Shown here in pieces: positions 8,270-25,409 of a stretch of DNA of 25,409 nucleotides. The stretch comes from a virus (taxonomy: Duplodnaviria; Caudoviricetes), in the IMG/VR virus record IMGVR_UViG_3300025432_000047, positions 1-25,409 of that record; one strand, written 5' to 3'. Position numbers and translations under genes: made by a program. The first letter of the stretch is position 1. Every line of letters starts with the position of its first letter. The notes beneath the pieces were generated by a model, which did not search any database, was not told the origin of the DNA, and worked only from the letters and a program-made list of their open reading frames with translations.

Positions 8270-8626
8270 ATGGCTAGTAGCATGAATATCACCGCAGACC
8301 TTGAATCTGATATTGACGGCACCGCAGCCACGCAACTCGTTTCCCAGGAGATGTTTGACCCGTTCTGTAGAGAGAAAGCCCAAGAGATATACGAAGCATC
8401 TCAAGACTTAGTTCCGGTTGATACTGGTGCCCTTAAAGAATCAGGGCATATTGAAGAGGTAGGCAGTGCGGTAGGTGAGGGACTTTGGTACGTCGTGTAT
8501 GACGCGCCGACTAAAGACCAGAGCAAGTGGAAGAGTTATGCAATATTCTTAGAACTCGGCACCAGTAAGATGTCAGCACAGCCGTATCTTAGACCTGCGA
8601 TGGAACAGGTGATCGGCAAGCTTTAA
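8270..8626 (+). CDS. HK97 gp10-like tail completion protein
   Basis: Diagnostic VPVDTGALKES and YAIFLELGTSKMSAQPYLRPA motifs. Confidence 0.9.
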   Translation: MASSMNITADLESDIDGTAATQLVSQEMFDPFCREKAQEIYEASQDLVPVDTGALKESGHIEEVGSAVGEGLWYVVYDAPTKDQSKWKSYAIFLELGTSKMSAQPYLRPAMEQVIGKL

Positions 8627-8630
8627 ACCA

Positions 8631-8732
8631 ATGTCACACAAGCACAGCGTCCACAAAGCGAGGACAAAACACACACATAAGAAAAGCCACCACACGCATA
8701 AAAAGACGAAAACGAAACACAAGAAGAAATGA
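8631..8732 (+). CDS. 33-aa His/Lys-rich basic micro-protein MSHKHSVHKARTKHTHKKSHHTHKKTKTKHKKK
   Basis: ATG 4 nt after the gp10 stop; TGA overlaps the next ATG (ATGA 8729-8732). 12 Lys, 9 His, 1 Arg and no acidic residue. Confidence 0.6.
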   Translation: MSHKHSVHKARTKHTHKKSHHTHKKTKTKHKKK

Positions 8733-9229
8733 ACGCACTTGACTACGCTATTGTCGCAATGATTCAGGCAGACCCCGTGATGCAAGCAGGTCTGTATAGC
8801 TTCCAGGGTCACCCAGCGGTGTTTACGTTTGTCCCGGTTCCCGAGGTTGACCCAGGGCCGCCACCTAAATTACCCTTACCTTTTGTCGTTTCAGAACCAA
8901 ACGTAGCAGACGTCGAGGACGATACAAAAGACCTAGTTGGTCATGATATTCATAGAGACGTACGGATTTACGATTACGAAACAGCAGACCCGCGAAACAT
9001 GAATATGTGGTCAATGCGTCTACGAGATATTTTCCACAGGCAGGAAAAGACCTTACAATACTACATACTCAACTCAGGTGACAGCGAGCTCTTTACCGTA
9101 GGCCAGTGCTGGGTTACACACGGCCCCGTAGCGGCTCCGGTTGAAGTAGACGAATACGTGCAAGGCAGGATACTCTCGCTTGTCATCCGCTTAACCAGAA
9201 TACCTAGCACAATGCCGTACCCAATCTAA
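8729..9229 (+). CDS. Tail terminator protein (SPP1 gp17 / DUF3168-like)
   Basis: Follows the gp10-like gene. Pattern AI..MIQADP....L.....AVF..VP....LPFVV.......D.K...G.....DV.IY.........RLRDIFHR. Confidence 0.7.
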   Translation: MNALDYAIVAMIQADPVMQAGLYSFQGHPAVFTFVPVPEVDPGPPPKLPLPFVVSEPNVADVEDDTKDLVGHDIHRDVRIYDYETADPRNMNMWSMRLRDIFHRQEKTLQYYILNSGDSELFTVGQCWVTHGPVAAPVEVDEYVQGRILSLVIRLTRIPSTMPYPI

Positions 9230-9231
9230 CC

Positions 9232-10104
9232 ATGCAATTCGCACAAATGGACGAATTAGAAAAGACCGAAGACGTGCATAGAGGATGCACAATCCTTCCC
9301 TTTACGACCATCTTCATAGGTGGTATGCCGGTTTCGATACGCTACACGATAAAGGATTTACTTACGATTGAACAGTTGCTTTGTATCCCACTGTGGAGAG
9401 TTATTGATCTATTCGTTCTGAATATGCTCAGCGATACGGAAAAGAGGTTAATCTTACAGTATGGTATTGTAGGCAGTCCTAAAGAAGCCCTTTCATTACT
9501 CGATGAAGAACCGGACGAAAGACGTGTATTCCAGACCGCAGGACTTGAGCTTATACGTGCTATCGGTATGGAAGTTATCTATGACGATCACGGAAACCCT
9601 GTTGATGTAAGACCCCCTGAAGTTGATACGTATAAACACGCTGAGATTTCAGAATTAAACTCACCAGTTAAAGACCACGAAAAGGTAGAGTTTGAAACAT
9701 TCGGGCAGTGGTACGAAGACAGGTTAAGAGAGCTCTTTAAAACAGGTTTAACGCGCATCGATGAGTTTTTGGAGCTAATGCCGGTTGAAATAGAGGTATA
9801 CATAGATGCCCACGTTGCCAGGAATATATACGATAGGCAATTAAACGTTGCGCTTGCTTATGATATTGGCGCTATGATGGGCGCAAAGCCTAAACAAAGT
9901 TTGGCGTCTGTATTAAAGCAAATCGAATTTAAAGCTATCCATACGATGGGTAGTAAGTTCACCCGAGACAAAGCCAAAAAAGAAGCCACAAAGCGAGTAA
10001 CACAAACACAGCGAGAACGTGCATCTGTTGATGCACTCGTCAAGAACATGCCGCCACCTCCAGGATTTCAAGGACCACAAGCGAACCAAAGCGAATCTCG
10101 GTAA
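9232..10104 (+). CDS. Tail assembly chaperone, in-frame G+T (gpGT-like) fusion
   Basis: The N-half has the chaperone pattern IFIGG....IRYTIKDL..IEQ.L. The C-half has the T-domain-like GL...DEFLELMPVEI. Confidence 0.6.
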   Translation: MQFAQMDELEKTEDVHRGCTILPFTTIFIGGMPVSIRYTIKDLLTIEQLLCIPLWRVIDLFVLNMLSDTEKRLILQYGIVGSPKEALSLLDEEPDERRVFQTAGLELIRAIGMEVIYDDHGNPVDVRPPEVDTYKHAEISELNSPVKDHEKVEFETFGQWYEDRLRELFKTGLTRIDEFLELMPVEIEVYIDAHVARNIYDRQLNVALAYDIGAMMGAKPKQSLASVLKQIEFKAIHTMGSKFTRDKAKKEATKRVTQTQRERASVDALVKNMPPPPGFQGPQANQSESR

Positions 10105-10125
10105 GAATATGAGTGGTGAATATAA

Positions 10126-10623
10126 ATGGAAAATGAAGAAACTCCGCAGGAGTTAGCCGCACTTAAGCGTAGATTCAACGTCGGTGCGGCAGTCGCTAAC
10201 CCGATTAAAGTTAAGTTAGATCGGGAGCGCACGATTGATTTTAGAAGTAGATACGTTGAGAAGATGGAGCAGTCGCTAGGTCTACGGCTTGGCCACATCT
10301 TAAAATTGTTTGAAGCGAGCGAGTGGAGCGAAGGTGACGTACTCGCAATACTTTGGGCTGGTTTACTCAAAGAGAACCCTGATATGCCCTATGAGATTGT
10401 CAGTGAGATATGGGACGCCACACCTACTGAGAACCGCGCTACTGCGTCTATTGACATCATCTTTGGCATAATGAAACACCAGGGATTGGACATTGACCTC
10501 CAGACCTACCACGCTCTTGTCGAAAAATACGGCAAGGAATCAAAGGCGCGCAGGGATGAGATAATGGAAGAAATCAAGAAACTCGAAACAGCAGAAGCGA
10601 CGAAAAAGAAGAAGAAGGAGTAA
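10126..10623 (+). CDS. Tail assembly chaperone (gpG-like)
   Basis: IKVKLDRERTIDF......MEQSLG......ILWAGLLKENPDM..E.V.EI.D is a typical TAC pattern; lies immediately before the TMP. Confidence 0.75.
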   Translation: MENEETPQELAALKRRFNVGAAVANPIKVKLDRERTIDFRSRYVEKMEQSLGLRLGHILKLFEASEWSEGDVLAILWAGLLKENPDMPYEIVSEIWDATPTENRATASIDIIFGIMKHQGLDIDLQTYHALVEKYGKESKARRDEIMEEIKKLETAEATKKKKKE

Positions 10624-10629
10624 AAGTAA

Positions 10630-12930
10630 GTGGCTGGTTCGACTATTGGTTCGGCAGTAATCAACCTAAAAGGCAACTCATCAGGTTTCCTAAGCGACTT
10701 AGAGTCTGCCATATCCGGCGCCAAGAGTAAAATCTCTGGCATGGGCAACGATATGGCAAGCGGTCTTTCAGGAGTTGGCTCTGTGATGACTGCTGGAATC
10801 ACGCTTCCTATCGTCGCTATGGGTGCGTTTGCCGTGAAGAGTTTTGAGGATATCAATACCGCACAGGACCAGCTTATCGGAAAGACTAATGTAACTGGTG
10901 CAGCCGCGCAACAAATGAGGCAGTCATTTAATAATGTATTTGGCAATACCCCCGAAAGTGCTTCCGATGTTGTATCCGCCATGACCGCCGTCCATGACAA
11001 GCTTGGACTCACCGGAACGGCATTGGAGCAAACATCAACACAAGCACTCGACTTGTCGCGCATACTAGGTACTGACGTTACTAGTACTGTCAGTGGTGTG
11101 ACAAAATTATTCCAAGCGTTTAGCGTACCCACGAAGGATATGAGTGCAGATATGGACCAGCTATACACCGTCAGCACTCATTCTGGTGTGGCCCTTACCG
11201 ATTTAACAACCGCCGTGTCTAAAGTGAGTGCAGTAGCCAAACCAGCGGGGTTATCAATGCAGCAGACAGAGGCAGCAGTTGGCGCTTTTGCTACCTCTGG
11301 CTTACCGGCACGTCAATCAGCATCGTTGCTTACTACAGCTATCGGTGACTTTACAAAAGCCGGTATTCCTGCGAGTAAAGCACTTCAGGATATCGCAAAC
11401 GGCAACGCGACAGCGGCAGAAAAACAGGCGATTCTCGGTAAGGGGTCAGCAGCAAGTATAGCGACGTGGGATAAGTTAACCGGGTCATTGAGCAAGGCGA
11501 AAGGTGGTTACAATGATATGACAAACGCCATTGACCACTCTAAAGGCTCCATCGCTTCAGAAGCACAATCTACTATGACACTCAGCCAAAAGTTTGATGA
11601 GCTCAAAAACAAGGCTGAAGTAGCGTTTGCTCCGTTGGGTGGTGTGATTGTAAATATTTTAATGAACCTGGTAACAGCAGCAACGCCGCTTGTTTCAATC
11701 CTTACTAAAGTCTTAAGTGTTTTCTCCGATATGCCCGCGCCGATTCAAATGGTGGTCGTCGTTTTGGGTGGTATCCTTGCTGCTATCGGGCCTATCTTAA
11801 TGATACTACCGCAGCTTGTCGAGGGCTTTGGCATGCTTCAAACTGCCTTTGCGTTTGTAAGTGGCGGAGGTATAGCAGAAGCTTTTGGAGGTATCGCGTC
11901 AACCATCACTGAAACGGTTATACCAGCGGCAATGGAAGGTGCGACGGCGTTTGCGGCGATGGTACTCCCATTATTACCAATAATCCTTATAGTCGCGGCT
12001 ATTGGCATCGGCCTTTACCTTTTATACACTTACTTTAAACCCTTCCACGATGCTGTGAATGAGGTCGTAGGCTGGGTTAAAGAGCTTGTAGGCGACCTAG
12101 CTTCCGGCAACTTTGGGAAGTTCGGCGCTGACTTTGCTGCTGGGATTCACACAGCAATAAATGACCTTATAAACTTTGACTGGGGCGGACTCGGGAATAA
12201 AATAAAAATAGGAATCGAAACCGCGCTTGCTACCTTTGGGACGTGGCTGTGGGGTCTCATACAACCGTTGCCTATGAAACTATGGAGTGCGTACATTGGC
12301 ATATGGGCGCAGATAGGGACATGGTTATGGAGTCTCATACAACCATTGCCTCAAAAGTTATGGAGTGCGTTACAAAGTGCAATAGGTACGTTTGGAGCAT
12401 GGCTATGGGGTCTAATATCTCCAATACCAGGTGAACTCGGAAGCGGTATTGAATCAGCGGTCTCAGGCTTTGGTGCGTGGTTAATGAGCGCAGCATCAGG
12501 ATTCTTCGGAGGCTTGCCGGGCAAGATACAGGGCGCTATCTCAGGTTTTGGAGACTGGCTTATAAGTGCTGCGCAAGGCTTTGCCACGTGGCTATCCAAT
12601 GCAGTCCAGAACGCGATTAAACAACTCCCAGGCGGCAGTCAGGCGTTATCTGCAGGAGGCACAGTCGCGAGTGCTGCTGGTGGCGTAGTAAACACCGTTA
12701 AATCACTACAAACAGGCGGCACAATCACCTCTAGTGGGCTATTCAACCTCCACGCTGGCGAAGCAGTAATACCGCCTGAGAATACTACGGATATGGGTGG
12801 AAACTACACCTTTACAGTCAACTTCAACAACGCCACGATTCAGTCGCAGGCGCAAGCGGAGACGTTTAGCAGGATTATGGCGTACCAAGCAACTTCTTTA
12901 ATGCGTAGACAAGGGCTTTCAAGAGGTTAG
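10630..12930 (+). CDS. Tail tape measure protein
   Basis: GTG start with AAGGAG. 766 aa, Ala/Gly-rich helical; GSVMTAGITLPIVA N-terminal motif, hydrophobic middle, Trp-periodic repeats and C-terminal LQTGG.I...G...LHAGEAVIP. Confidence 0.93.
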   Translation: MAGSTIGSAVINLKGNSSGFLSDLESAISGAKSKISGMGNDMASGLSGVGSVMTAGITLPIVAMGAFAVKSFEDINTAQDQLIGKTNVTGAAAQQMRQSFNNVFGNTPESASDVVSAMTAVHDKLGLTGTALEQTSTQALDLSRILGTDVTSTVSGVTKLFQAFSVPTKDMSADMDQLYTVSTHSGVALTDLTTAVSKVSAVAKPAGLSMQQTEAAVGAFATSGLPARQSASLLTTAIGDFTKAGIPASKALQDIANGNATAAEKQAILGKGSAASIATWDKLTGSLSKAKGGYNDMTNAIDHSKGSIASEAQSTMTLSQKFDELKNKAEVAFAPLGGVIVNILMNLVTAATPLVSILTKVLSVFSDMPAPIQMVVVVLGGILAAIGPILMILPQLVEGFGMLQTAFAFVSGGGIAEAFGGIASTITETVIPAAMEGATAFAAMVLPLLPIILIVAAIGIGLYLLYTYFKPFHDAVNEVVGWVKELVGDLASGNFGKFGADFAAGIHTAINDLINFDWGGLGNKIKIGIETALATFGTWLWGLIQPLPMKLWSAYIGIWAQIGTWLWSLIQPLPQKLWSALQSAIGTFGAWLWGLISPIPGELGSGIESAVSGFGAWLMSAASGFFGGLPGKIQGAISGFGDWLISAAQGFATWLSNAVQNAIKQLPGGSQALSAGGTVASAAGGVVNTVKSLQTGGTITSSGLFNLHAGEAVIPPENTTDMGGNYTFTVNFNNATIQSQAQAETFSRIMAYQATSLMRRQGLSRG
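12235..12600 (+). repeat. 26-aa (78-bp) Trp-periodic repeats in the TMP
   Basis: FGTWLWGLIQPLPMKLWSAYIGIWAQ / IGTWLWSLIQPLPQKLWSALQSAIGT / FGAWLWGLISPIPGELGSGIESAVSG / FGAWLMSAASGFFGGLPGKIQGAISG / FGDWL. Confidence 0.85.
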
Positions 12931-13618: not shown

Positions 13619-16600
13619 ATGACCATCCAAACATATGTAGGCACGTTTACATCACCATTGAGCACAGGCCAACAAGCTATCACAGGCATCCCGTTTCAGC
13701 CAACCGCTGTTATTATCTGGACTGCGGCATCGAGTAGTGGGTGGGCTACTGCCGACCTTTTCGCAATGGGATTCTGTGCAGGAACCGGAAGTACGTCAGG
13801 TATTACTCAGGGGTACGTTACGTGTGGGTCAGCTAATGGAAGTAGCGGGAGCGTTGGCTACCGTCGATACAACACCAGCGCCGCTATAGGGTTGGTGGGA
13901 AGTACTGGAACGCTCTACATTGAGGCGACGCTTTATTCAATGGACTCCGGCGGTTTCACCCTTAATTGGGGAACCGTTAGCTCCGGCACACAGATATGTA
14001 ATTATATGGCAATCGGGGGGACAACCAATGCTAAAGTAGTGGGGTGGCAGAATAACTTAGGCACAGTTCCGTTTACACAATCAGTAGGTGTCGGCTTCAC
14101 GCCTGACTGTGTTATACATATCGGAGCATCGACATCTGGTGGTTCTCCTTCCAACGTAAGTACTGGTGCTGTATTTGCAACGGGTGCAATGGACAGCGCG
14201 GGGAATCAATGGGGGGAGTGCGTATATGCACAAGGAGCCCAAGCCACATCCAATACAGGGCGAGTTCAACTCACCAGTGCGTGCTTACTAAACGAGCCCT
14301 TCGCAGTGAACCCGACAATGGTGGGTTCGTACTCTGCAATGGGGGCCAATGGTTTCACTATAAATTGGACTTCGATGCCTTCATACCAACTTGAGTGGAT
14401 TAGTCTCTGTTTAGAAGGCGGCGGCGAATATCAAGTTGGTAATTGGGCTAAGTCAACGGCGGCAGCCCCCGTATCTGATACGGTAAGTGTAAGTATGTTC
14501 CCTATGGGTGTGCTGCTAACGACGGACAGTTATACGGTGTCAGCAAGTGGACAAACGGGCCTCCGCACGATGGTTGGGGCATCAAATTCATTCGATAACG
14601 GCTGCGCGGGTGTTACTGATAAACACAACGTGGCGACCACCGTAGCAGACCGATTTCAATACGCTACGGCCTCGATTAACGTCAGCAATAACGACACCGA
14701 AACAAACGAAGCAGTAGCGACGGTAAGCGCGGCGACTTCCATAAGTCCGGCCATAGATTCTAACCAGGGTATTGCCTTTGATGGGACATATTATTACGCA
14801 TTTAACACGGGGTCGATATACAAATATAATTCATCGTGGGGGTACGTTGCGTCAAACACTAACGTAGGTACACAGGCAGGTGTTAATCATCTTGGTGATG
14901 GTGATTATTACAACGACGGAACGCACCAGCGACTTTACGTTGTAGGAATGAACAGCGGTACGTGCTCACCCCCTGGGTGGAGTGATAGCCGTATAGCAGT
15001 TTTCAATGCGTCAGACCTCAGCTTTGTTGAATATATAGATATATCGGCCCAGAACTTTGATGCTGGGGGTGGGTGCGCCGTTGACACCGATGATAATGTA
15101 CTCTGGGTAACTTCGTGGTGCGGCGGCGGCACGATTTATAAATACAAATTATCCGATATGATCAACGGTACGGCGACCTATCTAGGTTCAATAACCCCAA
15201 GCCCTGCAACGTCATACAGTCAAGGGATTGCATATTATAGTGGAAACTTATACTTCTCATATAGCACGGCCTCCTTTGTAGGGGGTGGCGTTACACGGAT
15301 GAACACCTCCGGCACAAACCAGTTGACGGTAGTTCCGTATTTCACCTTTGGAGAGGCGGAGGGCCTAACGGTTAATGCTACGGGTATTCATTTAGATATA
15401 GGCTCCGCTACGACGAACATTTATACGTATCCCCTTACCGTCAGCGGTTCATTTACCGCACGATGGACAACCAATAACAGCGTAGCAACACAAATCTGTT
15501 TTGTTGCTATGGGTATCCCTCCAAACATTGCTGAGGCAGCCTCGGTTGACGGTAAGCTCCTTGCGGACAACTCAGCATCTATTGCGTTAGACACATCAGC
15601 CTCGGTTGACGGTAAGCTCCTCGCGGACATCACCCCATCCATCGCATTTGATATTTCCACTTCCCAAGAGTGCGTCGTAATTCCTTACATAAGCTCTGCA
15701 ACAACGGGGATAATTGGCGGGGGCATTTTTACGTCCGTTGGAGTTGACGGCGAATTACTTGGCGATATTAATGCGAGTTCAATACTTTCTACCGTTACAC
15801 AGCCGTTAGATGCCATTGTTATTGCGGATATTGGTGTTGTCGTTTATTTCGCTAATAACAATATACTAAACACGGCGGTTGACGGCTTCATTGGTGGTGA
15901 CGTAACGGCAACGATGGAGCAGACTGTTGTTACTGGCAAAGGGACGGGTAAAACATACTGGAACGGCATTGACCTGACGCAAGCCCCATATTATGCGTAT
16001 TTAACGAGCAATACGAAATATGATTGGCTAGATGGCATTACGTTTATACAAGTGCCTACCGGACAAAATACGATGGCGAACACGTCAGCGTATCCTTCTA
16101 AGCTGCTTTTAACATTAGAGTATAAACTAAAGCCGTTGGCTAATATCGGCACTCTTACCGGCCCATCACAGACACGTCAGGAACTCCAGGCAGCATGGAA
16201 CGCCCTTACTGCACTTACCGATCCGATACTACAGGGGCAAGGTCAGCTTATACTTGCTGAGTTTCCAGGCAGCTATTGGATAGCAAAACGGCTCCAGACG
16301 GCCCCTAATGATGAGGCGGATTATCCTGCGATGGCAGATGTTCAATTAGAGTTTGCCGTCACAGGTATGGCGTATTCTGTTACGGAGTCATACGCAGCCG
16401 AGTCAATAGCCTCCTCATATACGACGCTTACCGTTACATCAAATGGTGACTCACTAGCATATCCACTCTGGACAATCCATTGTGGGGGTAACGGATACGG
16501 GGGTACTATCACCATCACCAACACTACGACAGGAGAAGCGGTTTCATGGACGGGGTGGGTAAAGTTTGGTGACATGCTTGGGTATATCATGGATGCGGAA

Positions 16601-19156
16601 TATGGGGAACCAGGCACAATGATACAAACATGGGGCTCCGTTACGGGCGCGTGGCCGCATCTCGTTCCGGGAGATAATATCATAGAAGTTAAACAATCAC
16701 CAGCTACAACGGGCTCCGGCCCCATAAATGGCATATTTGAAGTTCAGTGGCGTGATCGTTTCTCTAGGGGACAGTTGGTTATTCCGCCAATAGTGCCCCC
16801 AATCGTTAATATATTGCCAACGGACGTTGTGATTAATGGTGAGGATGCCGCTACAGATGGGTCATTTATCTTTTATGGTCAACTGATTGATATAAATTTA
16901 AATCCCGTACGATCTGCCAAAGTAGTCCTTTACGCATCGACTAATGACATATCATGGAGTGTCGTAGAAACAACCACTACGGATGAGAGTGGGAATTACA
17001 CGTTTAATGCAACTGGTGTTTATGATAATCTCACTCATTGGGAAGTGCGGTACGGGGGTAGTCCGCTATACTTTAGCTCGACAAGTTTAAGAATAATCAC
17101 GCTTCCGAGAGCAAAACGGGTTAATACAGAGATTTCAATAACGGTTGATACTTCACAAGCTCCTGCCTACACGTTTAGCGGTACGGTTGTAGAATCGGCA
17201 CATTCGAGTATTGTTGTCAACAACATTCTGGATTTGGTTGCTCTCCAGATATTAGTCCCCTGGAGTACGTGGACGGACGTGCCTGGCCTCGCTCTTGGTA
17301 GCACAGATAATTCCGGCGATTATACTTTTACGTACAATATAGGCCCTGTATTGAGTAATACAGATCAGACGGGTTACAGGGCTAAGTTCTTAGGCAACCT
17401 AGAGTTCAATCCAAGCGTTACTCCAGAAGAGATTTCGGTTACTGCCGCCACTCAGCCAGTAGCATGGCAACCTGAACTTCCGGTTCCGATAACATACTTA
17501 ATAGGACTCGCACCGCAGGCAGTTAATGCAGGGGTGCTTAATTACTTCGCTGCGGTTGGCTATACAGGGGTAATCCTCGTCGCAGAGGCGAACGCGCTGA
17601 CGGCTAGAAAAACGTATGCCACAGAACTTGCTATAATCAATAGTTTTGGCATGAGTGCCGTATTAGATATTGAAATGGTAGCGAACTCCGGCGGGATTAC
17701 GTGGAAAGAAGTAGCTAATGATACTGAATGTTCCACGTTTTATTCATGGTTTGCAGAGCTTGCCGCTGCCGGATGGCCTACCGTCTCATCAGAACTTGGT
17801 GATACTGGATACCCATATTACTCAGATAACGCTCGACGTTATTTCTCAGGTTTTATAAATTACAATATCCCGTACGCTAGCACATGGTCAGTAGTTAGCG
17901 TAGCTGCGGCGGGGGGTCAAAATACGCTGCAAGTAAGTTCCGGTGCGGGTTTTGTTAATGGAATGTCAATCGCCGTTGGTCAAGGGGGAGCCGACAGTGA
18001 AAAGGCAGTTATAGTCTCTGGTGCTGGTGTAGCCGGAGCCTCAACGCTTGTATTATCTGCTGGCCTGCAACACGCCCACCCTATAGGTGATACGGTCATG
18101 GCATGGCCGTACTGGGATGTGGATGTTAATACATCAGAAAACCTTTTTGAGTTCTACTGGCACTCTGCGGTAGGTTATATTGAGATGGGAACAACGTATG
18201 CTACACAGATAGGCATACCGTGCGGCATCTTAGCGTACCCGTATATAGACCCGACAGGTGGCTTGGATGTGTTTGAGAACTCAGTAAACAACCAGACCCC
18301 TACCTATCAATCACTGCTAGATTGGTCGTACGCAAACGGCATTGGGCTTACTACCTTTACATTTTGGCTTGATCCAAACTTTGACCAAATACTCAACAAT
18401 GGCGCTGACCCCATATACCTGCTTTTGTTCTACCTGACCCAGGGGGCTGACTCGGTTGTAACAAACTTGCAGCAGACGTATCCGGCGGCAGGAACCGAAG
18501 CACTTACGAATATTACTATGCTTATGCCGGAGTTGACGCTTAACGTCATTGAGGAGGCTCCTGGAGTATTTGTATTCTCAGGAACACTTGCTGAACTTCT
18601 AAGTGGCAATCCAATCGCAGGAGCGGACATTTATATTCAAATATCAAGCAATGGAGGCATTACGTGGACGGATTTGTCGGTAGTGCCATCCGTTACTAAT
18701 GCTACCGGCACGTATGCAGGATGGACAGAAGAGTTTGCCGCAGGCACGTACAATATCAGGGTTCTCTCCGGCGGTTCGAGCACCTATCTAAACACCTATG
18801 CCCCGTACAGCCATTACGGTTTACAGCTCGTAGTGCCCCCAACAGGAACCACTATTACAGGGCTTACCTTAAACGCTTCGAGTGCTTCAGTGGCATTAAA
18901 CGCAACGGATACATTTACTGCCGTTCTTACGAGCGGTGCAACGGGACTCTCAGGCAAATATATTACCATCTACCACTACGATTCGTCAGGGACGTATAAC
19001 TACGATGTAACTGGTGAAACTGACCCCACAGGCACTATTATGTTCGTTGCAACGGAATCCATCTCTGATACGTTCCAATACTTCGCTTACTTCGCTGGCG
19101 ATGCGACGTACGCAGCCGCGACAAGCAATGAAGTCGATGTTACGGTAGGGGACTAA
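13619..19156 (+). CDS. Giant multidomain tail-tip protein: 3 beta repeats + beta-propeller + Dit domain + Ig-like repeats + TIM-barrel-like domain
   Basis: 1845 aa in the Dit position between TMP and Tal. Dit-like motifs TYWNGIDL, LILAEFPGSYW.A, NGDSLAYP.WTI, WPHLVPGDNIIEV and VQWRDRF lie at about 15947-16762. Confidence 0.8.
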   Translation: MTIQTYVGTFTSPLSTGQQAITGIPFQPTAVIIWTAASSSGWATADLFAMGFCAGTGSTSGITQGYVTCGSANGSSGSVGYRRYNTSAAIGLVGSTGTLYIEATLYSMDSGGFTLNWGTVSSGTQICNYMAIGGTTNAKVVGWQNNLGTVPFTQSVGVGFTPDCVIHIGASTSGGSPSNVSTGAVFATGAMDSAGNQWGECVYAQGAQATSNTGRVQLTSACLLNEPFAVNPTMVGSYSAMGANGFTINWTSMPSYQLEWISLCLEGGGEYQVGNWAKSTAAAPVSDTVSVSMFPMGVLLTTDSYTVSASGQTGLRTMVGASNSFDNGCAGVTDKHNVATTVADRFQYATASINVSNNDTETNEAVATVSAATSISPAIDSNQGIAFDGTYYYAFNTGSIYKYNSSWGYVASNTNVGTQAGVNHLGDGDYYNDGTHQRLYVVGMNSGTCSPPGWSDSRIAVFNASDLSFVEYIDISAQNFDAGGGCAVDTDDNVLWVTSWCGGGTIYKYKLSDMINGTATYLGSITPSPATSYSQGIAYYSGNLYFSYSTASFVGGGVTRMNTSGTNQLTVVPYFTFGEAEGLTVNATGIHLDIGSATTNIYTYPLTVSGSFTARWTTNNSVATQICFVAMGIPPNIAEAASVDGKLLADNSASIALDTSASVDGKLLADITPSIAFDISTSQECVVIPYISSATTGIIGGGIFTSVGVDGELLGDINASSILSTVTQPLDAIVIADIGVVVYFANNNILNTAVDGFIGGDVTATMEQTVVTGKGTGKTYWNGIDLTQAPYYAYLTSNTKYDWLDGITFIQVPTGQNTMANTSAYPSKLLLTLEYKLKPLANIGTLTGPSQTRQELQAAWNALTALTDPILQGQGQLILAEFPGSYWIAKRLQTAPNDEADYPAMADVQLEFAVTGMAYSVTESYAAESIASSYTTLTVTSNGDSLAYPLWTIHCGGNGYGGTITITNTTTGEAVSWTGWVKFGDMLGYIMDAEYGEPGTMIQTWGSVTGAWPHLVPGDNIIEVKQSPATTGSGPINGIFEVQWRDRFSRGQLVIPPIVPPIVNILPTDVVINGEDAATDGSFIFYGQLIDINLNPVRSAKVVLYASTNDISWSVVETTTTDESGNYTFNATGVYDNLTHWEVRYGGSPLYFSSTSLRIITLPRAKRVNTEISITVDTSQAPAYTFSGTVVESAHSSIVVNNILDLVALQILVPWSTWTDVPGLALGSTDNSGDYTFTYNIGPVLSNTDQTGYRAKFLGNLEFNPSVTPEEISVTAATQPVAWQPELPVPITYLIGLAPQAVNAGVLNYFAAVGYTGVILVAEANALTARKTYATELAIINSFGMSAVLDIEMVANSGGITWKEVANDTECSTFYSWFAELAAAGWPTVSSELGDTGYPYYSDNARRYFSGFINYNIPYASTWSVVSVAAAGGQNTLQVSSGAGFVNGMSIAVGQGGADSEKAVIVSGAGVAGASTLVLSAGLQHAHPIGDTVMAWPYWDVDVNTSENLFEFYWHSAVGYIEMGTTYATQIGIPCGILAYPYIDPTGGLDVFENSVNNQTPTYQSLLDWSYANGIGLTTFTFWLDPNFDQILNNGADPIYLLLFYLTQGADSVVTNLQQTYPAAGTEALTNITMLMPELTLNVIEEAPGVFVFSGTLAELLSGNPIAGADIYIQISSNGGITWTDLSVVPSVTNATGTYAGWTEEFAAGTYNIRVLSGGSSTYLNTYAPYSHYGLQLVVPPTGTTITGLTLNASSASVALNATDTFTAVLTSGATGLSGKYITIYHYDSSGTYNYDVTGETDPTGTIMFVATESISDTFQYFAYFAGDATYAAATSNEVDVTVGD
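15537..15910 (+). repeat. 60-bp (20-aa) coding tandem repeat with degenerate further copies
   Basis: cagcctcggttgacggtaagctcct(t/c)gcggaca at 15537 and 15597 (ASVDGKLLAD twice), then GVDGELLGD, PLDAIVIAD and AVDGFIGGD. Confidence 0.85.
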
Positions 19157-19162
19157 ATTTAA

Positions 19163-21556
19163 ATGGACTACGTACCCGACTATACATTTGAACTCAGGCA
19201 GCGGAACACTTCGGGGGGTTATGACTTAGTGCAACAACTGCCTGACCGCATGCAGCCATATCTCACTCGCCAACTGGGAACGGCGGATAACATCGCTTTT
19301 AACCTTCCGTTAGAAAGCCAAGCGGCGCAGTACATCATCAACACGCCATCAGACCTTGAAATCTGGTGGTACGGACGGGATATGAAACTCAAGCAGGTCT
19401 TTGTTATCGTTCAAAAGGAACGCTATAAAGACTACGGTGCTACGAGCATGACGGGCGGATCTGCTCGATTAGGAAGTGGCAGCGGTGCAAACCTCCTTAT
19501 TAGCTCAGACGGGCCTGAGCATTATTTGACCAGATACTATACGCAAGATTATTCTGTAACGCAACGATTAGTCTCTGATATTGTTGATGACCTTTGTGTT
19601 GAGTTATGGCATGACGGCTTAATATCTGCCGCCTACGTTGATCCATCGCTTGACCAGTTTATTGACATAGATGTGAGCAATGAAAACATATTCGCAGCCG
19701 TTGGCAACATTATAAACCAGCTCCCACCAAGCTATATGCAGGTCTTGTTTAACCCAAGCAACCCTACGGAGCGCACGTTATACCTACTGCCGATGCCTGA
19801 CAGTATCCCAACTCCTAAGGGCATAGGCACTACCTCAGCGGTTATACCACAAGCTAAACCGCAAATTACGAGCAAGAGCAAACCACTCACCCTTAAAACA
19901 CCCGTACGAGTGCGCTCTGGAAAGTTAAAAGATACTGTAGGTGCTACGCCTCCAGCGGTTATAAATAACGCTTTGGAGGCAAAGGAAAATGCTTCGACTC
20001 CGTTAATGAAGTTTGATAAGAACTTAACGGGCATAGACGTTCTTGAGGATACAAGCAGCGTTGTTACAAGAGTGTATTGCCGAGGTTCCGGCTCAAGTCC
20101 TAGCGAATTGAGCTTTAGTACGCCACCATTTTATCCTGCGGCACAGGAACTTACGCTTTTAAAAACAGATGGTGGGTATGCTTACTTTAGGCTTCCTTTA
20201 GTGAATGGCTTTGACTGTGCTATTTATGCAGGCTGGACAGGTGATGGCGAGGCGTTGCCGAGTAATATGGGCATCGGAATGAATAAATGGAACCCGTTTA
20301 GTACCTCTTATGACTCAAGCGCAACGACTAAGTTTTTTGTAGCGAACGATAAGACCGCAGCGGCGCAACTCTTCTATATGCCAGCACCGTTTCATGTCTA
20401 TTCTGCGTCGCTCCTCTTAAAGCGCGTCACCCCTCAAACTGTTACATGGCCTAAGATGCCGCTGTTTCAAGTGGGGTTATACACGGCCAGGGAGGCCCCC
20501 ACTACTACCGGCCTACAACAAGCAGGAGTTCCAACGCCTCAAAACGGGCCGTTAGAGTGGTGCTATGGTAACTTAATGAGTTTAACAACAACGCCGACAT
20601 GGTATGAGTTTCCGATGCAGGCAACAAAGTGGGGCCCTGGATGGTATGCGATTGTGCTACAACCATATTCTCCTACTGATTCTTGGAATAAAGTAAACCC
20701 TAAAACGTCCGCAAATGATTATTTACAATGGTGTAGCAGCTCTGACCAACCGACAGCTTCTAAGACCTTTGGAGAAGTAACCAATGGGGGAGTCAATCCT
20801 ACGGCGTGGTGGATGAATAAAACAAATCCGTATGATTGGCAAACGGCATTTAAACTCGCTGTATGGGACTATGACATGACCACAAAATTTATACAAGGGC
20901 CGGATGCGCGGACGGTAAAGACCAAAATAGCAAATTATCAGGCAGATAATGCGTGGTTTATTAACTATCAACACGGCCCTTATTTGATGGCGTGGGATGC
21001 CGAAGGGGAGTATAAAGCACCGTTCTATGGCACGTTTAAAGATGATTCGGTCATATCACAAAATTCGCTGTGGCTAGAAGGCGCTCAGTACTTATACGCG
21101 AACTCACAACCCACGATGACCACCAGCTTAGGGGCCGTTGACTTATACGAGATCGACCCGACGGTTAATTGGAATGATGAAATTACGATTGGCGGCACGA
21201 TCAGGGTAGTTGATCCTGATTTAAACTTTGATGAGGAGTTTATCGTAACCAAAATAAGTAAAATGGATATGACCAAACCGCATCAGTTTGATACGCTTGA
21301 GTTGAATAACATCCACATGACCGTTCAACAATACACCGCAATGTTAGCGGGTTCTGCGTCAAAAACACGGAAATATCAAAGCGGCCAAACGGTTGAGGCG
21401 ATTCATGCTGGTAATGGGGGGTTCTCATCAGGCTCTATGTATGAGGATTACTTTGAGATACGCAATGAAACTGACTTAGTACACTCAATAAAACTCTCGG
21501 CTTTTAGTGCTGTAGATGGGTTTTACGTCACTGTTGATGGAAACGCTGTATGGTAA
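19163..21556 (+). CDS. Tal / baseplate hub protein (Prophage_tail-like), apparently missing the end of its C-terminal domain
   Basis: Motifs KNLTGIDVLEDTSSVVTRVYCRG and AVDL.......ITIGGTIRVVDPDL......VTKISK; follows the Dit. Ends abruptly at VTVDGNAVW. Confidence 0.8.
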   Translation: MDYVPDYTFELRQRNTSGGYDLVQQLPDRMQPYLTRQLGTADNIAFNLPLESQAAQYIINTPSDLEIWWYGRDMKLKQVFVIVQKERYKDYGATSMTGGSARLGSGSGANLLISSDGPEHYLTRYYTQDYSVTQRLVSDIVDDLCVELWHDGLISAAYVDPSLDQFIDIDVSNENIFAAVGNIINQLPPSYMQVLFNPSNPTERTLYLLPMPDSIPTPKGIGTTSAVIPQAKPQITSKSKPLTLKTPVRVRSGKLKDTVGATPPAVINNALEAKENASTPLMKFDKNLTGIDVLEDTSSVVTRVYCRGSGSSPSELSFSTPPFYPAAQELTLLKTDGGYAYFRLPLVNGFDCAIYAGWTGDGEALPSNMGIGMNKWNPFSTSYDSSATTKFFVANDKTAAAQLFYMPAPFHVYSASLLLKRVTPQTVTWPKMPLFQVGLYTAREAPTTTGLQQAGVPTPQNGPLEWCYGNLMSLTTTPTWYEFPMQATKWGPGWYAIVLQPYSPTDSWNKVNPKTSANDYLQWCSSSDQPTASKTFGEVTNGGVNPTAWWMNKTNPYDWQTAFKLAVWDYDMTTKFIQGPDARTVKTKIANYQADNAWFINYQHGPYLMAWDAEGEYKAPFYGTFKDDSVISQNSLWLEGAQYLYANSQPTMTTSLGAVDLYEIDPTVNWNDEITIGGTIRVVDPDLNFDEEFIVTKISKMDMTKPHQFDTLELNNIHMTVQQYTAMLAGSASKTRKYQSGQTVEAIHAGNGGFSSGSMYEDYFEIRNETDLVHSIKLSAFSAVDGFYVTVDGNAVW

Positions 21557-21577
21557 GTTACTAGGAGAAAGATAAAA

Positions 21578-22570
21578 ATGCCAAAACTGCCAGGAGAAAC
21601 GCAAGGACACTTTGAGATGCGCGTATTCGGGCACAAGTTAGGCTGCGATGTGCAAAAGAGTATTGATGAGACTAATCGGCGGCTAGGAATTGGCGAGATC
21701 ACTGAATTTGTACCTACTGTCTCCTTAAAGCAACTCCGTGCTGCCGCCTCCGTTGACTTATCCAAGTATGACTCTCCGGTATCAGATCAAGACGGTATAG
21801 GCGACTGCTGTGCTGAGGCGAGTATTAATTGTTTTGAATGGCTACAAAAAAATATACAGGGTAGTTTTTTCGCTGGCTCCCGAATGGCTCAGTATTATTG
21901 GTGTCTAGTGCATGACGGATCGAATAGTAGCGGCTGCGCTGATACAGGCACAAACACCTCAACGGCAGATTGGGTTATGACAAATAACGGTGTAGCGCAC
22001 AGCTCCCTTTGGCCGTTTAGTGAAAATTGTAATACCGCCCCAACGTCTAACGTTGTATCAGATGCGGCAGAAAATAAACAAACGGCCTCGAATGTGGTTA
22101 GCGGTTCGACTAGCGGCGATGGCGCTACGACGGTGGCTAACTGTAAAGCAACGTTAGCTTCTGGTTCCGTGTTTTATGCTGCATTTGATTTTTGGGAGAA
22201 TTATTACGACGCAGAGACGAACGGCGGAAAATTCCCTGCGCCGAGCGGTAGCCCTGTTGGGGGGCATTGTATGGAGTTTTGCGGCTATGACGATGCTGGA
22301 TCAAACCTAGGCGGCTCAACAGGGTATTTTAAGTGTAAGAACAGTTGGGGAACCAGTACTGGTGATAATGGCTATTATTACATGCCATATAACATCGCTA
22401 CCGGAATCGACTCTGGTGGCTCTAACTCTCAAATAAGCGCCGCTTATGTTATTACCGGAGAAAGTGAGATAGTAACGCCAACACCACCAAGCCCAACGCC
22501 AACACCAACCGGCGGCACGCAGATAACATACACGATTAGGCCGCGAGAGTATCGAGGAGGGTACAGATAG
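21578..22570 (+). CDS. Papain-family (C1A) cysteine protease with PT linker and C-terminal tag
   Basis: SVDL...SPVSDQDGIGDCCA (Gln71, Cys77), GGHCMEFCGYDD (His230), KNSWGT..GDNGYYYMPY (Asn255). No signal peptide. AGGAG RBS. Confidence 0.9.
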   Translation: MPKLPGETQGHFEMRVFGHKLGCDVQKSIDETNRRLGIGEITEFVPTVSLKQLRAAASVDLSKYDSPVSDQDGIGDCCAEASINCFEWLQKNIQGSFFAGSRMAQYYWCLVHDGSNSSGCADTGTNTSTADWVMTNNGVAHSSLWPFSENCNTAPTSNVVSDAAENKQTASNVVSGSTSGDGATTVANCKATLASGSVFYAAFDFWENYYDAETNGGKFPAPSGSPVGGHCMEFCGYDDAGSNLGGSTGYFKCKNSWGTSTGDNGYYYMPYNIATGIDSGGSNSQISAAYVITGESEIVTPTPPSPTPTPTGGTQITYTIRPREYRGGYR

Positions 22571-24427
22571 TCGAATGGCAACACCGTATCTTTATTACAA
22601 GTTTGATAAGGACTCTACTACTGTCACCAATTATGGCAGCGGAGGCTCAGGATACAACGGGACTGCGACGAGGGCACAATATGCTACTGACTCTGCTGGT
22701 TATCCAGTATGGGGGCCCATGACTGACAATAACGATAGGATAACTGTACCAGGCGGTTGCAGTAACCCTTATCAGCATACGTGGGAGATTGGGTTAAACA
22801 TTAATCATTGGTGGCCTGGAAACGGCGATGATGGCGGCGTTGCACAAGGTAACGACGGTAAGCTATGGGCACTCGCAAACGACTTGTTTTATGGCTATTT
22901 TCACGGAGTTTGCGGCTTTGGAGCTAACTGCTCCGGCGGCGCTCTTGTAGGAACTAGTAACGTCTATAATTTCACTGTTGAAGCGCAGGGCAGTCCTAGC
23001 AGTCTCGATGTTGACCTTTGGCTCGGTGTAGGGGATAACAAACCCGTTCAGATCGGAAACGATGGGCTAGGAACAGACGATCCAGGGGCATTATACCTGG
23101 CGTTCAATTACAACTTTCAGTTAAACACAAATTATTATCTTCAGATTACAGTAGATTGCGATGGCGGCCCAGGAGGGAACGATTATTACATTAGTAACTG
23201 CGCCCCTGGCTGTGCTGACTCATCAGTGCAAGGTTTTCCAAGCGGCTGTTACTTCTACGTTTGGCGTGAATATAACTCAATAATAGACCTCTCTGGTGGC
23301 GGCGATTGGGCTACGGATGTCGTACTGTGGAAAGGCGGAACGCCGAGCCCAACACCAACCCCAACGCCGACACCAACGCCATCATCAGGCATACCGATAA
23401 CATACTCAATAATACCGAGAGAATATCAAGGTGGGTTTAGGTGAGATAGATAATGACAATGGTTTTTCAAATCTGTGCCACGTCATTTAGCAATCCGGCA
23501 GGAGCGAAGAGCGCCGGCTATATTGACTGTGTAGTCGAGGCGGGTTCTGGCTGTGTACAGCCCCCCGGTGGTTTTATAACCGCCTGTCACGGACAAGGCA
23601 TGGGTGCCCTCATGCAAAACAGTGATTCGGGCTCTGGTGGGTGCAGCGATACATCGTATCTTTCTGGACTGGCCAGTGCAGGATTAGACGCGGTAGGTGG
23701 TGAGTCTGAGGGCGGCGCTGAGATTGATGCTATTATGCAATATTTGCCGTTCATGAACTATGGTGGTGAAGGCACAGGTGGCACTACCGGCAACAACTGT
23801 GTATGGTCTTCCTGTGGTGGTAATGACGGCGCATCGGTCGGCAAGTATGGGTGCTCAACGTTTTTAGAGACGTATACTACCGACTCAATGCTCAGTGCTT
23901 CGGAAATAGGCCAAGAGGCCGGGATGAATTACGACGCAGGTTGCTTTGAGGTCGGAATACTTGTCGGATCATGGAGCTACGGTGATTATGGGGCCGGGGT
24001 AAGTACGTATCAAGAGATGGTTGATGAGATAGCATCTCAAAGTAAAAAACCGTGTGTCGGCTTCCAATGGTGGTATGTGGAAGGTGACGGCAGCGGTGCG
24101 CCTTCTAATGATTCTGGCGGCGTTATGGCAGGGCTAATGAGTGCCTACGGCAAGAACATGACGCCGATTTATGACCGTAAAAAAGGAGTAACCCCTACGC
24201 CACCAAGCCCAAGCCCAAGTCCTAGCCCAAGCCCTGTATTCCAGAAGGGCACGTACTTTCAAGGGTACATAAATCAAATTGATATAGCCCCTGCGCTCGC
24301 CGCCGCACATAACGGCCAACCTACGCGAGGGGTGCATGTTATTGACTTTTGGCCTGTAACAGGGAGCAGTTCTACCGTCGGCATAACATATACCGCCAGG
24401 CCGCGAGAACTCCAGAGCGGGTACAGA
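22523..24427 (+). repeat. Three dispersed copies of a 45-bp/15-aa C-terminal motif (starting at 22523, 23397 and 24383)
   Basis: ITYTIRPREYRGGYR, ITYSIIPREYQGGFR and ITYTARPRELQSGYR; 8 of 15 residues invariant, and all begin ATAACATA. Confidence 0.92.
22575..23444 (+). CDS. LamG/concanavalin-A-like jelly-roll protein with PT linker and C-terminal tag
   Basis: N-terminal LYYKFDK.STTVTNYGSGG..YNGT and C-terminal VWREYNSII resemble LamG-like domain ends. GAGGAGG upstream. Confidence 0.6.
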   Translation: MATPYLYYKFDKDSTTVTNYGSGGSGYNGTATRAQYATDSAGYPVWGPMTDNNDRITVPGGCSNPYQHTWEIGLNINHWWPGNGDDGGVAQGNDGKLWALANDLFYGYFHGVCGFGANCSGGALVGTSNVYNFTVEAQGSPSSLDVDLWLGVGDNKPVQIGNDGLGTDDPGALYLAFNYNFQLNTNYYLQITVDCDGGPGGNDYYISNCAPGCADSSVQGFPSGCYFYVWREYNSIIDLSGGGDWATDVVLWKGGTPSPTPTPTPTPTPSSGIPITYSIIPREYQGGFR

Positions 24428-24442
24428 CAATTCCAACAATAA
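23453..24442 (+). CDS. TIM-barrel glycoside-hydrolase-like domain + PS linker + 67-aa C-terminal module ending in the shared tag
   Basis: Colinear motif matches to 17489-18483, followed by TPTPPSPSPSPSPSP and a beta-rich tail. AGGTGA upstream. Confidence 0.55.
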   Translation: MTMVFQICATSFSNPAGAKSAGYIDCVVEAGSGCVQPPGGFITACHGQGMGALMQNSDSGSGGCSDTSYLSGLASAGLDAVGGESEGGAEIDAIMQYLPFMNYGGEGTGGTTGNNCVWSSCGGNDGASVGKYGCSTFLETYTTDSMLSASEIGQEAGMNYDAGCFEVGILVGSWSYGDYGAGVSTYQEMVDEIASQSKKPCVGFQWWYVEGDGSGAPSNDSGGVMAGLMSAYGKNMTPIYDRKKGVTPTPPSPSPSPSPSPVFQKGTYFQGYINQIDIAPALAAAHNGQPTRGVHVIDFWPVTGSSSTVGITYTARPRELQSGYRQFQQ

Positions 24443-24486
24443 AAAAAGAGAATTAAATTAAAAACAAAGATGAGGAACCATGAAAA

Positions 24487-25161
24487 GTGCCAACAAGAAA
24501 TATTGCAGAAGTTGAAGAAGCAATAATCAAACGACTCGACATCCATAGAAAAGAGCTTACCACTATGGAAGAGTGCACAAAACAATGCCAAATCTCCATC
24601 GGACAGCACGACGAACGGCTCAGGGCGTATGAAGAGAACAGTAAGCGACAGAACGGGACTCTTGACAAGCTAAGTGAGGATATAGACTCAGTAGCGCACG
24701 GGGTAAATGACATCGTCAAGAAAGTTGACGCAATGGACACAAGCATAGCAAACCGCGTGAATGAGATAGAACGCAACGGAATCAAACGTGATGCCACGAG
24801 TGATATAGCCGTGAGAGAACGGGCGGATACTCGCGAGGTGCATATACGAGCAGAAGTGGATAACTTAACGAAAGAAATTGCCGAAGTAAAGCGCTTGGGT
24901 GGAGCACGAATGGCGGAGATAGAGCGGATCGCGCTGAAAAGCGCCGCAGAACATGAACAGTGTGCCATTGACCGGATAGCGGCAGCGAGAGAAGAATCTG
25001 GGGATGAAATCGCCGCACTTAGGGTAGAGTTCATTAAGCAACAGTCGGAAGCGATGAGCAATATTCAATGGAAAATCATAGCTGCGCTTTCGTCACTTGC
25101 GTTCCTGTTTATACTGGTCTTTATCTCATACTCGTTTCATGTGTTTGGAGGCTTACCATGA
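24487..25161 (+). CDS. Coiled-coil protein with a single C-terminal transmembrane helix (XhlA/holin-associated-like)
   Basis: GTG start, charged heptad-rich body, RL..YE....RQNGTL.KL motif and hydrophobic IIAALSSLAFLFILVFISY. Confidence 0.55.
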   Translation: MPTRNIAEVEEAIIKRLDIHRKELTTMEECTKQCQISIGQHDERLRAYEENSKRQNGTLDKLSEDIDSVAHGVNDIVKKVDAMDTSIANRVNEIERNGIKRDATSDIAVRERADTREVHIRAEVDNLTKEIAEVKRLGGARMAEIERIALKSAAEHEQCAIDRIAAAREESGDEIAALRVEFIKQQSEAMSNIQWKIIAALSSLAFLFILVFISYSFHVFGGLP

Positions 25162-25409
25162 CAGAAGAAAACCACGACGCTATAATACGCCACGAGTGCG
25201 CGATAGGCGAACTGCGCGAGCAGGGTGAAGTTATCCTTAAAAGATTAGATGAACAGGACGCGAATGACGTAGCTATCAGGGATGAACTCATAAAAAAGAT
25301 AGAGGATAACAAATCCAAATTTGGTGATGCGATGTGGGCTATTGCTATGCTACTATTAGGTGGCTTTGTAAGTGGCTTTATTTTTGCTATTCTTTACATG
25401 ATAAAATAG
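25158..25409 (+). CDS. Small coiled-coil protein with a C-terminal transmembrane helix (XhlA/holin-like), 83 aa
   Basis: Likely start is ATG 25158 (ATGA overlap, GGAGG upstream) rather than 25068. TM segment WAIAMLLLGGFVSGFIFAILY. Confidence 0.6.
   Translation: MTEENHDAIIRHECAIGELREQGEVILKRLDEQDANDVAIRDELIKKIEDNKSKFGDAMWAIAMLLLGGFVSGFIFAILYMIK

Follow-up and report, generated by a model that had tools for sequence, protein, structure and literature searches.

The window analysed here, that is, the whole 25.4-kb stretch of DNA, is one viral contig (IMG/VR record IMGVR_UViG_3300025432_000047). Its tail genes lie on the + strand in the order tail tube, connector genes, tape measure, Dit-like gene, hub (Tal), three cargo genes and genes for two membrane proteins. 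We focused on the hub and the three cargos, which the original prediction had described as unrelated proteins sharing a Pro/Thr/Ser linker and a 15-residue C-terminal tag. The three open reading frames (ORFs) and their linkers were found where they had been placed, and the bodies are unrelated, with local scores of 35-45 against each other. The hub stops half-way through a C-terminal jelly-roll domain that is continuous in Bacillota phage Tals, the middle of this domain is carried by the third cargo, and relatives show complementary cuts and a conserved terminal tag. Hereafter, the hub part of the domain is piece N, the middle is piece M and the tag is piece C. The features are listed below, with scores from a position-specific scoring matrix (PSSM) for the tags.

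19163..21556, + strand: tail hub (Tal / tail spike protein), 797 aa; PF06605 E 1.6e-12, TIGR01665; follows the tape measure (TMP) and Dit-like genes
21374..21553, + strand: piece N, first half of the hub C-terminal jelly-roll domain, residues 738-797, where the chain ends; from alignments
21578..22570, + strand: cargo 1, C1A (papain-like) cysteine peptidase, tag only; PF00112 E 1.6e-8, 3ois E 2e-11
22475..22510, + strand: Pro/Thr linker of cargo 1; from sequence
22523..22567, + strand: tag of cargo 1 (piece C, putative last strand); PSSM 11.7 bits, above all 2246 null ends
22575..23444, + strand: cargo 2, beta-rich, possibly a LamG-like lectin, tag only; 42 homologues
23340..23387, + strand: Pro/Thr linker of cargo 2; from sequence
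23397..23441, + strand: tag of cargo 2 (piece C); PSSM 10.6 bits
23453..24442, + strand: cargo 3, predicted TIM barrel (residues 1-243), glycoside-hydrolase-like by fold neighbours, with M and tag; AlphaFold2 (AF2) and fold search
24191..24235, + strand: Pro/Ser/Thr linker of cargo 3; from sequence
24248..24355, + strand: piece M, middle of the hub domain (HNGQPT motif), on cargo 3; matches the hub end of P0003, hhalign to intact Tals
24383..24427, + strand: tag of cargo 3 (piece C), in cis after M; PSSM 12.9 bits

The cut hub domain in the window and its relatives

The hub scores above the curated cut-offs of both PF06605 (48.1 bits versus 31.3) and TIGR01665 (29.2 versus 26.75). A search with its residues 560-797 returned four clusters among 431 candidates, and the hub stop point is the same in the window cluster, P0002, P0004, L028, L031 and L082. 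The hub of P0003 has 37 residues beyond the stop of the window hub; this stretch, with HNGQPT in it, corresponds to the extra tail of cargo 3 and ends just before the tag. The extra 45 residues of cargo 3 are the middle of the hub's own domain, an identity that the original prediction had not given. A profile scan of the window in six frames found a single copy of M, on cargo 3, and no second N or M piece. The hub stop TAA (21554-21580 region) is in frame with the cargo 1 ATG, with seven sense codons between them, and read-through would fuse both proteins.

N, M and a further strand lie in one chain in four annotated phage Tals that were read individually. Searching with N+M by tblastn gave weak matches (E 0.5-7) in five phage records, four of them Tals, and the full hub matched one more. 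A scan with the tails of intact Tals detected 73 loci, 71 of them with a stop; among the 58 distinct tails two were wrong picks, leaving 56 further intact tails. The profile of cargo M+tag aligned to the intact tails by hhalign over 46 columns (probability 96.7, E 3.3e-10) in an alignment that still held the two wrong picks, and, with just the four intact tails, at E 8.8e-10. Two candidates, L002 and L003, were rejected as relatives with this domain, being distant Tals that end before it.

The AF2 model of the intact domain (L098, 14 rows) had a mean predicted local distance difference test (pLDDT) of 77, with long strands at residues 26-37, 53-67 and 125-137 and short ones at 43-49, 76-81 and 113-120. 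Fold searches returned generic jelly rolls over residues 22-142 (best Z 9.3, root-mean-square deviation (rmsd) 3.1, 114 aligned). No solved Tal with this domain was among the fold-search matches listed, which does not exclude one, and searches of PDB sequences with the domain and with an intact Tal gave nothing significant. In the standard jelly-roll topology, the last strand sits between the first and third strands. By their lengths, the strands in the model are consistent with this topology, and the first and third strands, which would flank the last one, are probably both in piece N.

Two further features of the hubs were observed. Some intact Bacillota Tals (L094, 2835-3719; L095; L096) have a long Gly/Thr- and His-rich insertion at one loop; the insertion at this loop is 17 residues long in the N-only hubs of L028, L031 and L082. 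As a single 797-aa ORF, the window hub differs from the hubs of L021, L011, L012 and L048, which are encoded by two genes (~234-253 and 563-598 aa), and this marks a second point of splitting or fusion.

The metagenome scan for the M motif gave 89 loci, of which 66 were dropped as chance matches and 23 were real; with the window, 24 loci were tabulated. The hub carries N+M in 13 loci. Nine of these show complete downstream genes, and all of those genes (24/24) encode tag-only cargos, with TIM-barrel, C1A or LamG-like bodies; each of the six N+M-hub loci that are long enough has three tagged cargos. Three loci have an N-only hub adjoining a cargo with M+tag, and in seven only a cargo is visible, always with M+tag. 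The window shows a mixed arrangement, hub N followed by cargos C, C and M+C, and is an informative case because it bears on whether M and the last strand can come from different chains. M was on both hub and cargo in none of the 24 loci, and no tag was found beside intact Tals in 267 segments downstream of 71 loci (1.2-kb flanks).

A search with the M+tag profile returned 38 proteins, including M+tag cargos and 15 hubs that all end after M. Four proteins (P0063, P0091, P0092 and P0098) end after M without a tag, which indicates that M and tag can lie on different chains; these M-only cargos suggest that a full three-chain assembly exists elsewhere. Scans of viral contigs gave one match to the M pattern, due to chance, and none to a DNA pattern for the tag found in the window. 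N-only hubs fall in three places in a tree of 26 hubs from which the domain was excluded, and the well-supported branches do not exclude a single origin.

The shared tag and the cargo proteins

The 15-residue motifs of cargos 1, 2 and 3 are ITYTIRPREYRGGYR, ITYSIIPREYQGGFR and ITYTARPRELQSGYR, respectively, with eight of the 15 positions invariant, as had been noted before. A degenerate pattern for ITY[TS]xxPRE matched three times in the window versus zero times in each of 100 shuffles. Each cargo was said to end in the motif, which holds for cargos 1 and 2, but cargo 3 continues with four more residues, QFQQ. Codon differences had been taken as a sign of selection on the peptide, and this was borne out in part: four of the eight invariant codons differ synonymously, but the other four (ATA, ACA, CCG and GGG) are identical in all three tags, suggesting a shared DNA origin with copying at the DNA level plus selection. 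All three tags open with the same eight bases. Ribosome-binding sites can explain the last residues of the motif at most and were rejected as its origin: the cargo 2 tag has AGGTGA overlapping its last codon, and GGAGG lies 14 bases 5' of the cargo 2 start.

The 14-column PSSM was trained on 40 tags from outside the window's clade, with 2246 null ends for comparison. The window tags scored 10.6-12.9, above the null maximum of 9.6, and the hub and 20 other window genes scored below 0. None of the 19 hub clusters bears the tag (0/16 with N+M, 0/3 with N only). It was detected on 34 of 42 cargo-2 relatives and on 16 of 44 cargo-3 relatives, counts that describe the family rather than test it, most of the tagged relatives having been in the training set. 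Cargo-3-like and cargo-2-like bodies (P0041, P0077 and P0135) also share another C-terminal motif, which follows a Thr/Pro-rich linker and has T[IV]VLRDHKK at its end. In P0041 (L177:3397-6054) it lies two genes after a short Tal without the N piece, and may be another docking module.

Relative to the conserved His of M, the tag lies 22-28 residues further on in 18 cargos, versus a median of 21 for the last strand of intact Tals. From 33 distinct last strands of intact Tals (consensus GRINANIISRVF) a profile was made and scored on 48 tags (consensus PNVNMNVRVREY). The tags scored positively in one of eight registers, with 29 of the 48 above the 99th percentile of the null ends, and shuffled columns reached their mean score in 35 of 20,000 cases. 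Of the window's tags, those of cargos 1 and 2 rank within the null's top 1% (19 and 14 of 2246, respectively). The tag would correspond to the final strand of the hub domain, although the signal is weak and this match is the weakest link of the docking interpretation given below.

Tags resemble each other by genome. Over 19 tags, identity was 0.66 within a genome (13 pairs), 0.49 between orthologous cargos (51 pairs) and 0.45 otherwise, and none of 5000 permutations reached 0.66; the pairs are not independent, and the near-copies L057 and L060 inflate the between-genome value. The window tags are 57-71% alike and at most 36% alike to any other tag tested, and the cargo bodies are 32-62% identical to their orthologues. 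Such genome-specific tags could reflect either co-evolution with a single socket or copying among neighbours. L057 and L063, in which M is retained on the hub, match the 950 bases from 24460 to 25409 (beginning 18 bases 3' of cargo 3) at 99.3% identity, versus 68-86% in the tail genes, which suggests that the tip cassette ends right after the last tag. The same 950 bases look like a recent exchange with a sharp edge.

The peptidase assignment of cargo 1, made before from the sequence, was confirmed by PF00112 (35.3 bits versus a cut-off of 20.7) and by an intact catalytic set of Gln-x5-Cys, His and Asn (Q71, C77, H230 and N255). C1A cargos come in two lengths that share one tag, ~325 aa (L057, L075) and ~660 aa (L060:2580-4571, L008, L018 and L081), with a ~335-aa insertion in the longer form. 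For cargo 2, LamG is a lead only (Atlas feature scores of 0.86-0.88; template modelling (TM) score of 0.42-0.47 on a poor model), and no Pfam match, including PF13385, was obtained. The TIM-barrel-like body of cargo 3 was recovered in its AF2 model (mean pLDDT 81), with glycoside hydrolase family 18 (GH18) proteins on top of the fold matches (VIA Z 13-14, rmsd 3.4-3.8, ~210-220 aligned), at identities of 6-14%. The GH18 catalytic motif is DxDxE. Cargo 3 was rejected as a GH18 chitinase; its strand-4 motif is conserved as GGESE with an invariant E84, and none of 36 cargo-3 family members has a glycoside hydrolase Pfam match. The earlier claim that the cargos lack a signal peptide or transmembrane anchor agrees with a hydropathy check, as distinct from a signal-peptide predictor, in which no cargo had a hydrophobic 19-mer above 0.91.

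Upstream of the hub, the TMP gene (10630-12930) is a clear match and is followed by a gene for an 1845-aa protein (13619-19156) without a Dit profile match and with weak immunoglobulin (Ig)-like Pfam matches, which we take to be Dit-like from its position and motifs. It has long N- and C-terminal extensions, and in L012 parts of the region are separate genes. The tail tube and head-tail adaptor genes and the tail-completion and chaperone-like genes (249-1757 and 8270-10623) are kept apart by about 6.5 kb of fibre-like or unknown genes. The overlapping genes at 24487-25161 and 25068-25409, downstream of the cargos, encode coiled-coil proteins; both have a membrane segment at the C-terminus and weak holin/haemolysin-like PHROG matches. 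L057:15269-15799 is a lipoprotein-like gene without an NCBIfam match, the N-terminus of whose product may resemble those of methanogen-related archaea.

At least half of the window's sampled words were found in 14 sequencing runs, 11 from peat and three from wetland and all with different study codes, a possible source run being excluded. Two scans of GTDB genome contigs gave 88 and 40 candidates, none of them confirmed, and pointed to no host. Two cargo-2 relatives are labelled as from a Ca. Korobacteraceae metagenome-assembled genome, a label that may reflect a binned viral contig. In RNA runs X22 and X23 the cargo genes had only patchy cover and transcription was not seen.

Proposed docking of the cargos on the hub and alternative explanations

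With a probability of roughly 75%, we infer from these comparisons that the cargos dock on a trimeric hub by strand complementation, supplying the missing strands of its split domain. The original prediction of a beta-strand label that loads cargo on the hub is strongly supported in comparative terms, the tag corresponding to the last strand that the hub lacks, even if the strand match itself is weak. The last strand would lie between two hub-encoded strands, so that the tag could lock into this groove as a donor strand. Tal is described as a trimer at the tail tip (PMC7291167), and three sockets would result. In the window, each socket would take M from cargo 3, presumably from three copies. 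The groove for the last strand would receive the tag of cargo 3 itself or, on some subunits, that of cargo 1 or 2. The resulting tips would be mixed, with three to six cargo molecules on Pro/Thr tethers, displayed for what is likely the binding and cutting of the host surface protein and glycan layer at attachment.

One cargo per hub subunit had also been proposed. This would fit the relatives with N+M hubs, where three sockets could meet three tagged cargos, with random filling equally possible. Strict 1:1:1 loading does not fit the window, because only cargo 3 has M. A more far-reaching and tentative model, to which we give somewhat less than even odds, is a three-piece socket in which one jelly roll is built from three chains (hub, middle and last strand), each able to carry cargo. 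The trimer could then display up to six enzymes or lectins in mixed combinations, and any protein gaining the 14-residue tag would be loaded.

Several observations weigh against docking by strand complementation. Because M is present on cargo 3 alone, the other two cargos have to compete with a tag that lies in cis, and the cargo genes adjoin holin-like genes. The tag of cargo 3 is at the null level against the last-strand profile (278/2246), shuffles that keep the in/out alternation of the strand reach the tags' mean score in 759 of 20,000 cases, so that the match is weak, and the reverse test, with the tag PSSM on four intact Tals, was not significant. The window tags are divergent and were missed by a first hidden Markov model of 16 columns. 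By PSSM, 28 of the 44 cargo-3 relatives have no tag, and tagless bodies of this kind often bear repeat or Ig-like modules instead. The loci were selected through the M motif, and the finding that N-only hubs have an M cargo is therefore built in. Finally, the nine informative N+M-hub loci represent about three lineages, seven of them with near-identical hubs.

Among the alternatives, the one that survives best, though we consider it unlikely, is that the split domain is real but only cargo 3 docks, as three copies that each supply M together with the cargo 3 tag; the other two tags would be out-competed or left from an ancestor whose hub kept M. The single M in the window agrees with this, as do L082, where one M+tag cargo suffices between the hub and a holin-like gene, and the place of the window hub in the tree, near the N+M hubs of P0003 and L040. 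But the form of the cargo 1 and cargo 2 tags is the one specific to the window, so that these tags changed along with that of cargo 3; they also fit the last-strand profile better than the cargo 3 tag does, and M cargos without a tag exist.

It is less probable still that the tag, without binding the hub, is a signal by which lysis enzymes are sorted, exported or oligomerised. Such a role would suit the position of a peptidase and a glycoside-hydrolase-like protein immediately upstream of two membrane proteins with weak holin/haemolysin-like matches; cargo-3-like bodies also occur with Ig-like and repeat domains, and in L057 the 4.8 kb downstream of the cargos, whose ORFs were read by eye with two of them scanned, showed no annotated endolysin. 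Yet a lysis signal leaves unexplained the movement of M between hub and cargo, the spacing of the tag after M (22-28 residues versus mostly 21) and its absence beside intact Tals.

We regard as very unlikely that the tags bind not the hub socket but each other or another virion protein, such as the 1845-aa Dit-like protein by way of an incomplete Ig-like domain. This protein has Ig-like domains, by weak Pfam matches, and tag-bearing genes outnumber M-bearing ones in the window, but no second N or M piece is present there and the presence of the tag tracks truncation of the hub domain.

Covalent re-joining into a complete hub chain by DNA rearrangement, splicing or recoding, with the tag as a recombination or joining site, is hardly credible: the shared eight opening bases and the in-frame hub stop would allow it, but synonymous differences run throughout the tags, read-through would yield N + peptidase + tag without M, and one contig of run X3 spans 21134-24521 unbroken, with no hub-end-to-M joint listed in four runs (contigs only, rare forms dropped).

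Significance and comparison with known systems

If docking by strand complementation is correct, a tailed virus could swap its tail-tip enzymes or adhesins by means of a short portable tag, leaving the hub unaltered, and fold-complementation loading would extend from the spike of type VI secretion systems (T6SS) to virions. The relatives form a natural series (intact, cut once and cut twice) of how one domain becomes plug and socket, and the tag may offer a natural split-protein tag.

Chaperone-usher pili likewise complete an incomplete beta-sandwich with a strand of another chain, using Ig folds, a chaperone and chain growth; the socket in the window would receive a single cap, and a chaperone gene is not evident there. 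Bacillota phage Tals (TIGR01665, PF06605, phrog_4311; e.g. gp24 of vB_BhaS-171, YP_009273348.1) belong to the same hub family and have the same order of N, M and last strand. They hold the domain in one chain, often with a His-rich insertion, and no tagged cargo lies downstream, whereas in the window the domain is split. The Tal extensions of TP901-1, Tuc2009 and DT1 are described as carrying lysin or carbohydrate-binding domains (PMC7291167). There, enzyme or sugar-binding modules also stand at the end of the Tal trimer, but are fused in the chain, whereas in the window they are separate genes with putatively non-covalent attachment.

No virion case of such fold-complementation loading was found in the literature searched, mostly outside subscription journals and without supplements. 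The earlier claim that no virion system of this form is known to be described stands within that literature, but such loading has a T6SS precedent on the VgrG spike. In enteroaggregative E. coli, three Tle1 are reported on the VgrG trimer, the N-terminal strand of Tle1 completing a transthyretin-like extension (PMC10715212). As described there, this is the closest precedent: a trimeric spike of phage-hub ancestry, three cargo enzymes and a terminal beta-strand of the cargo that completes a C-terminal extension of the spike. VgrG-Tle1 has an N-terminal donor strand, a transthyretin-like socket and, in that account, one cargo type, whereas the window would use a C-terminal strand after a Pro/Thr linker, a predicted jelly roll and three unrelated cargos. 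With its phage tail context, C-terminal tag and jelly-roll neighbours of the socket, the window system is not a member of the VgrG-Tle1 group but would work alike; unlike VgrG-Tle1, it is viral, and the two points at which its domain is cut vary among relatives.

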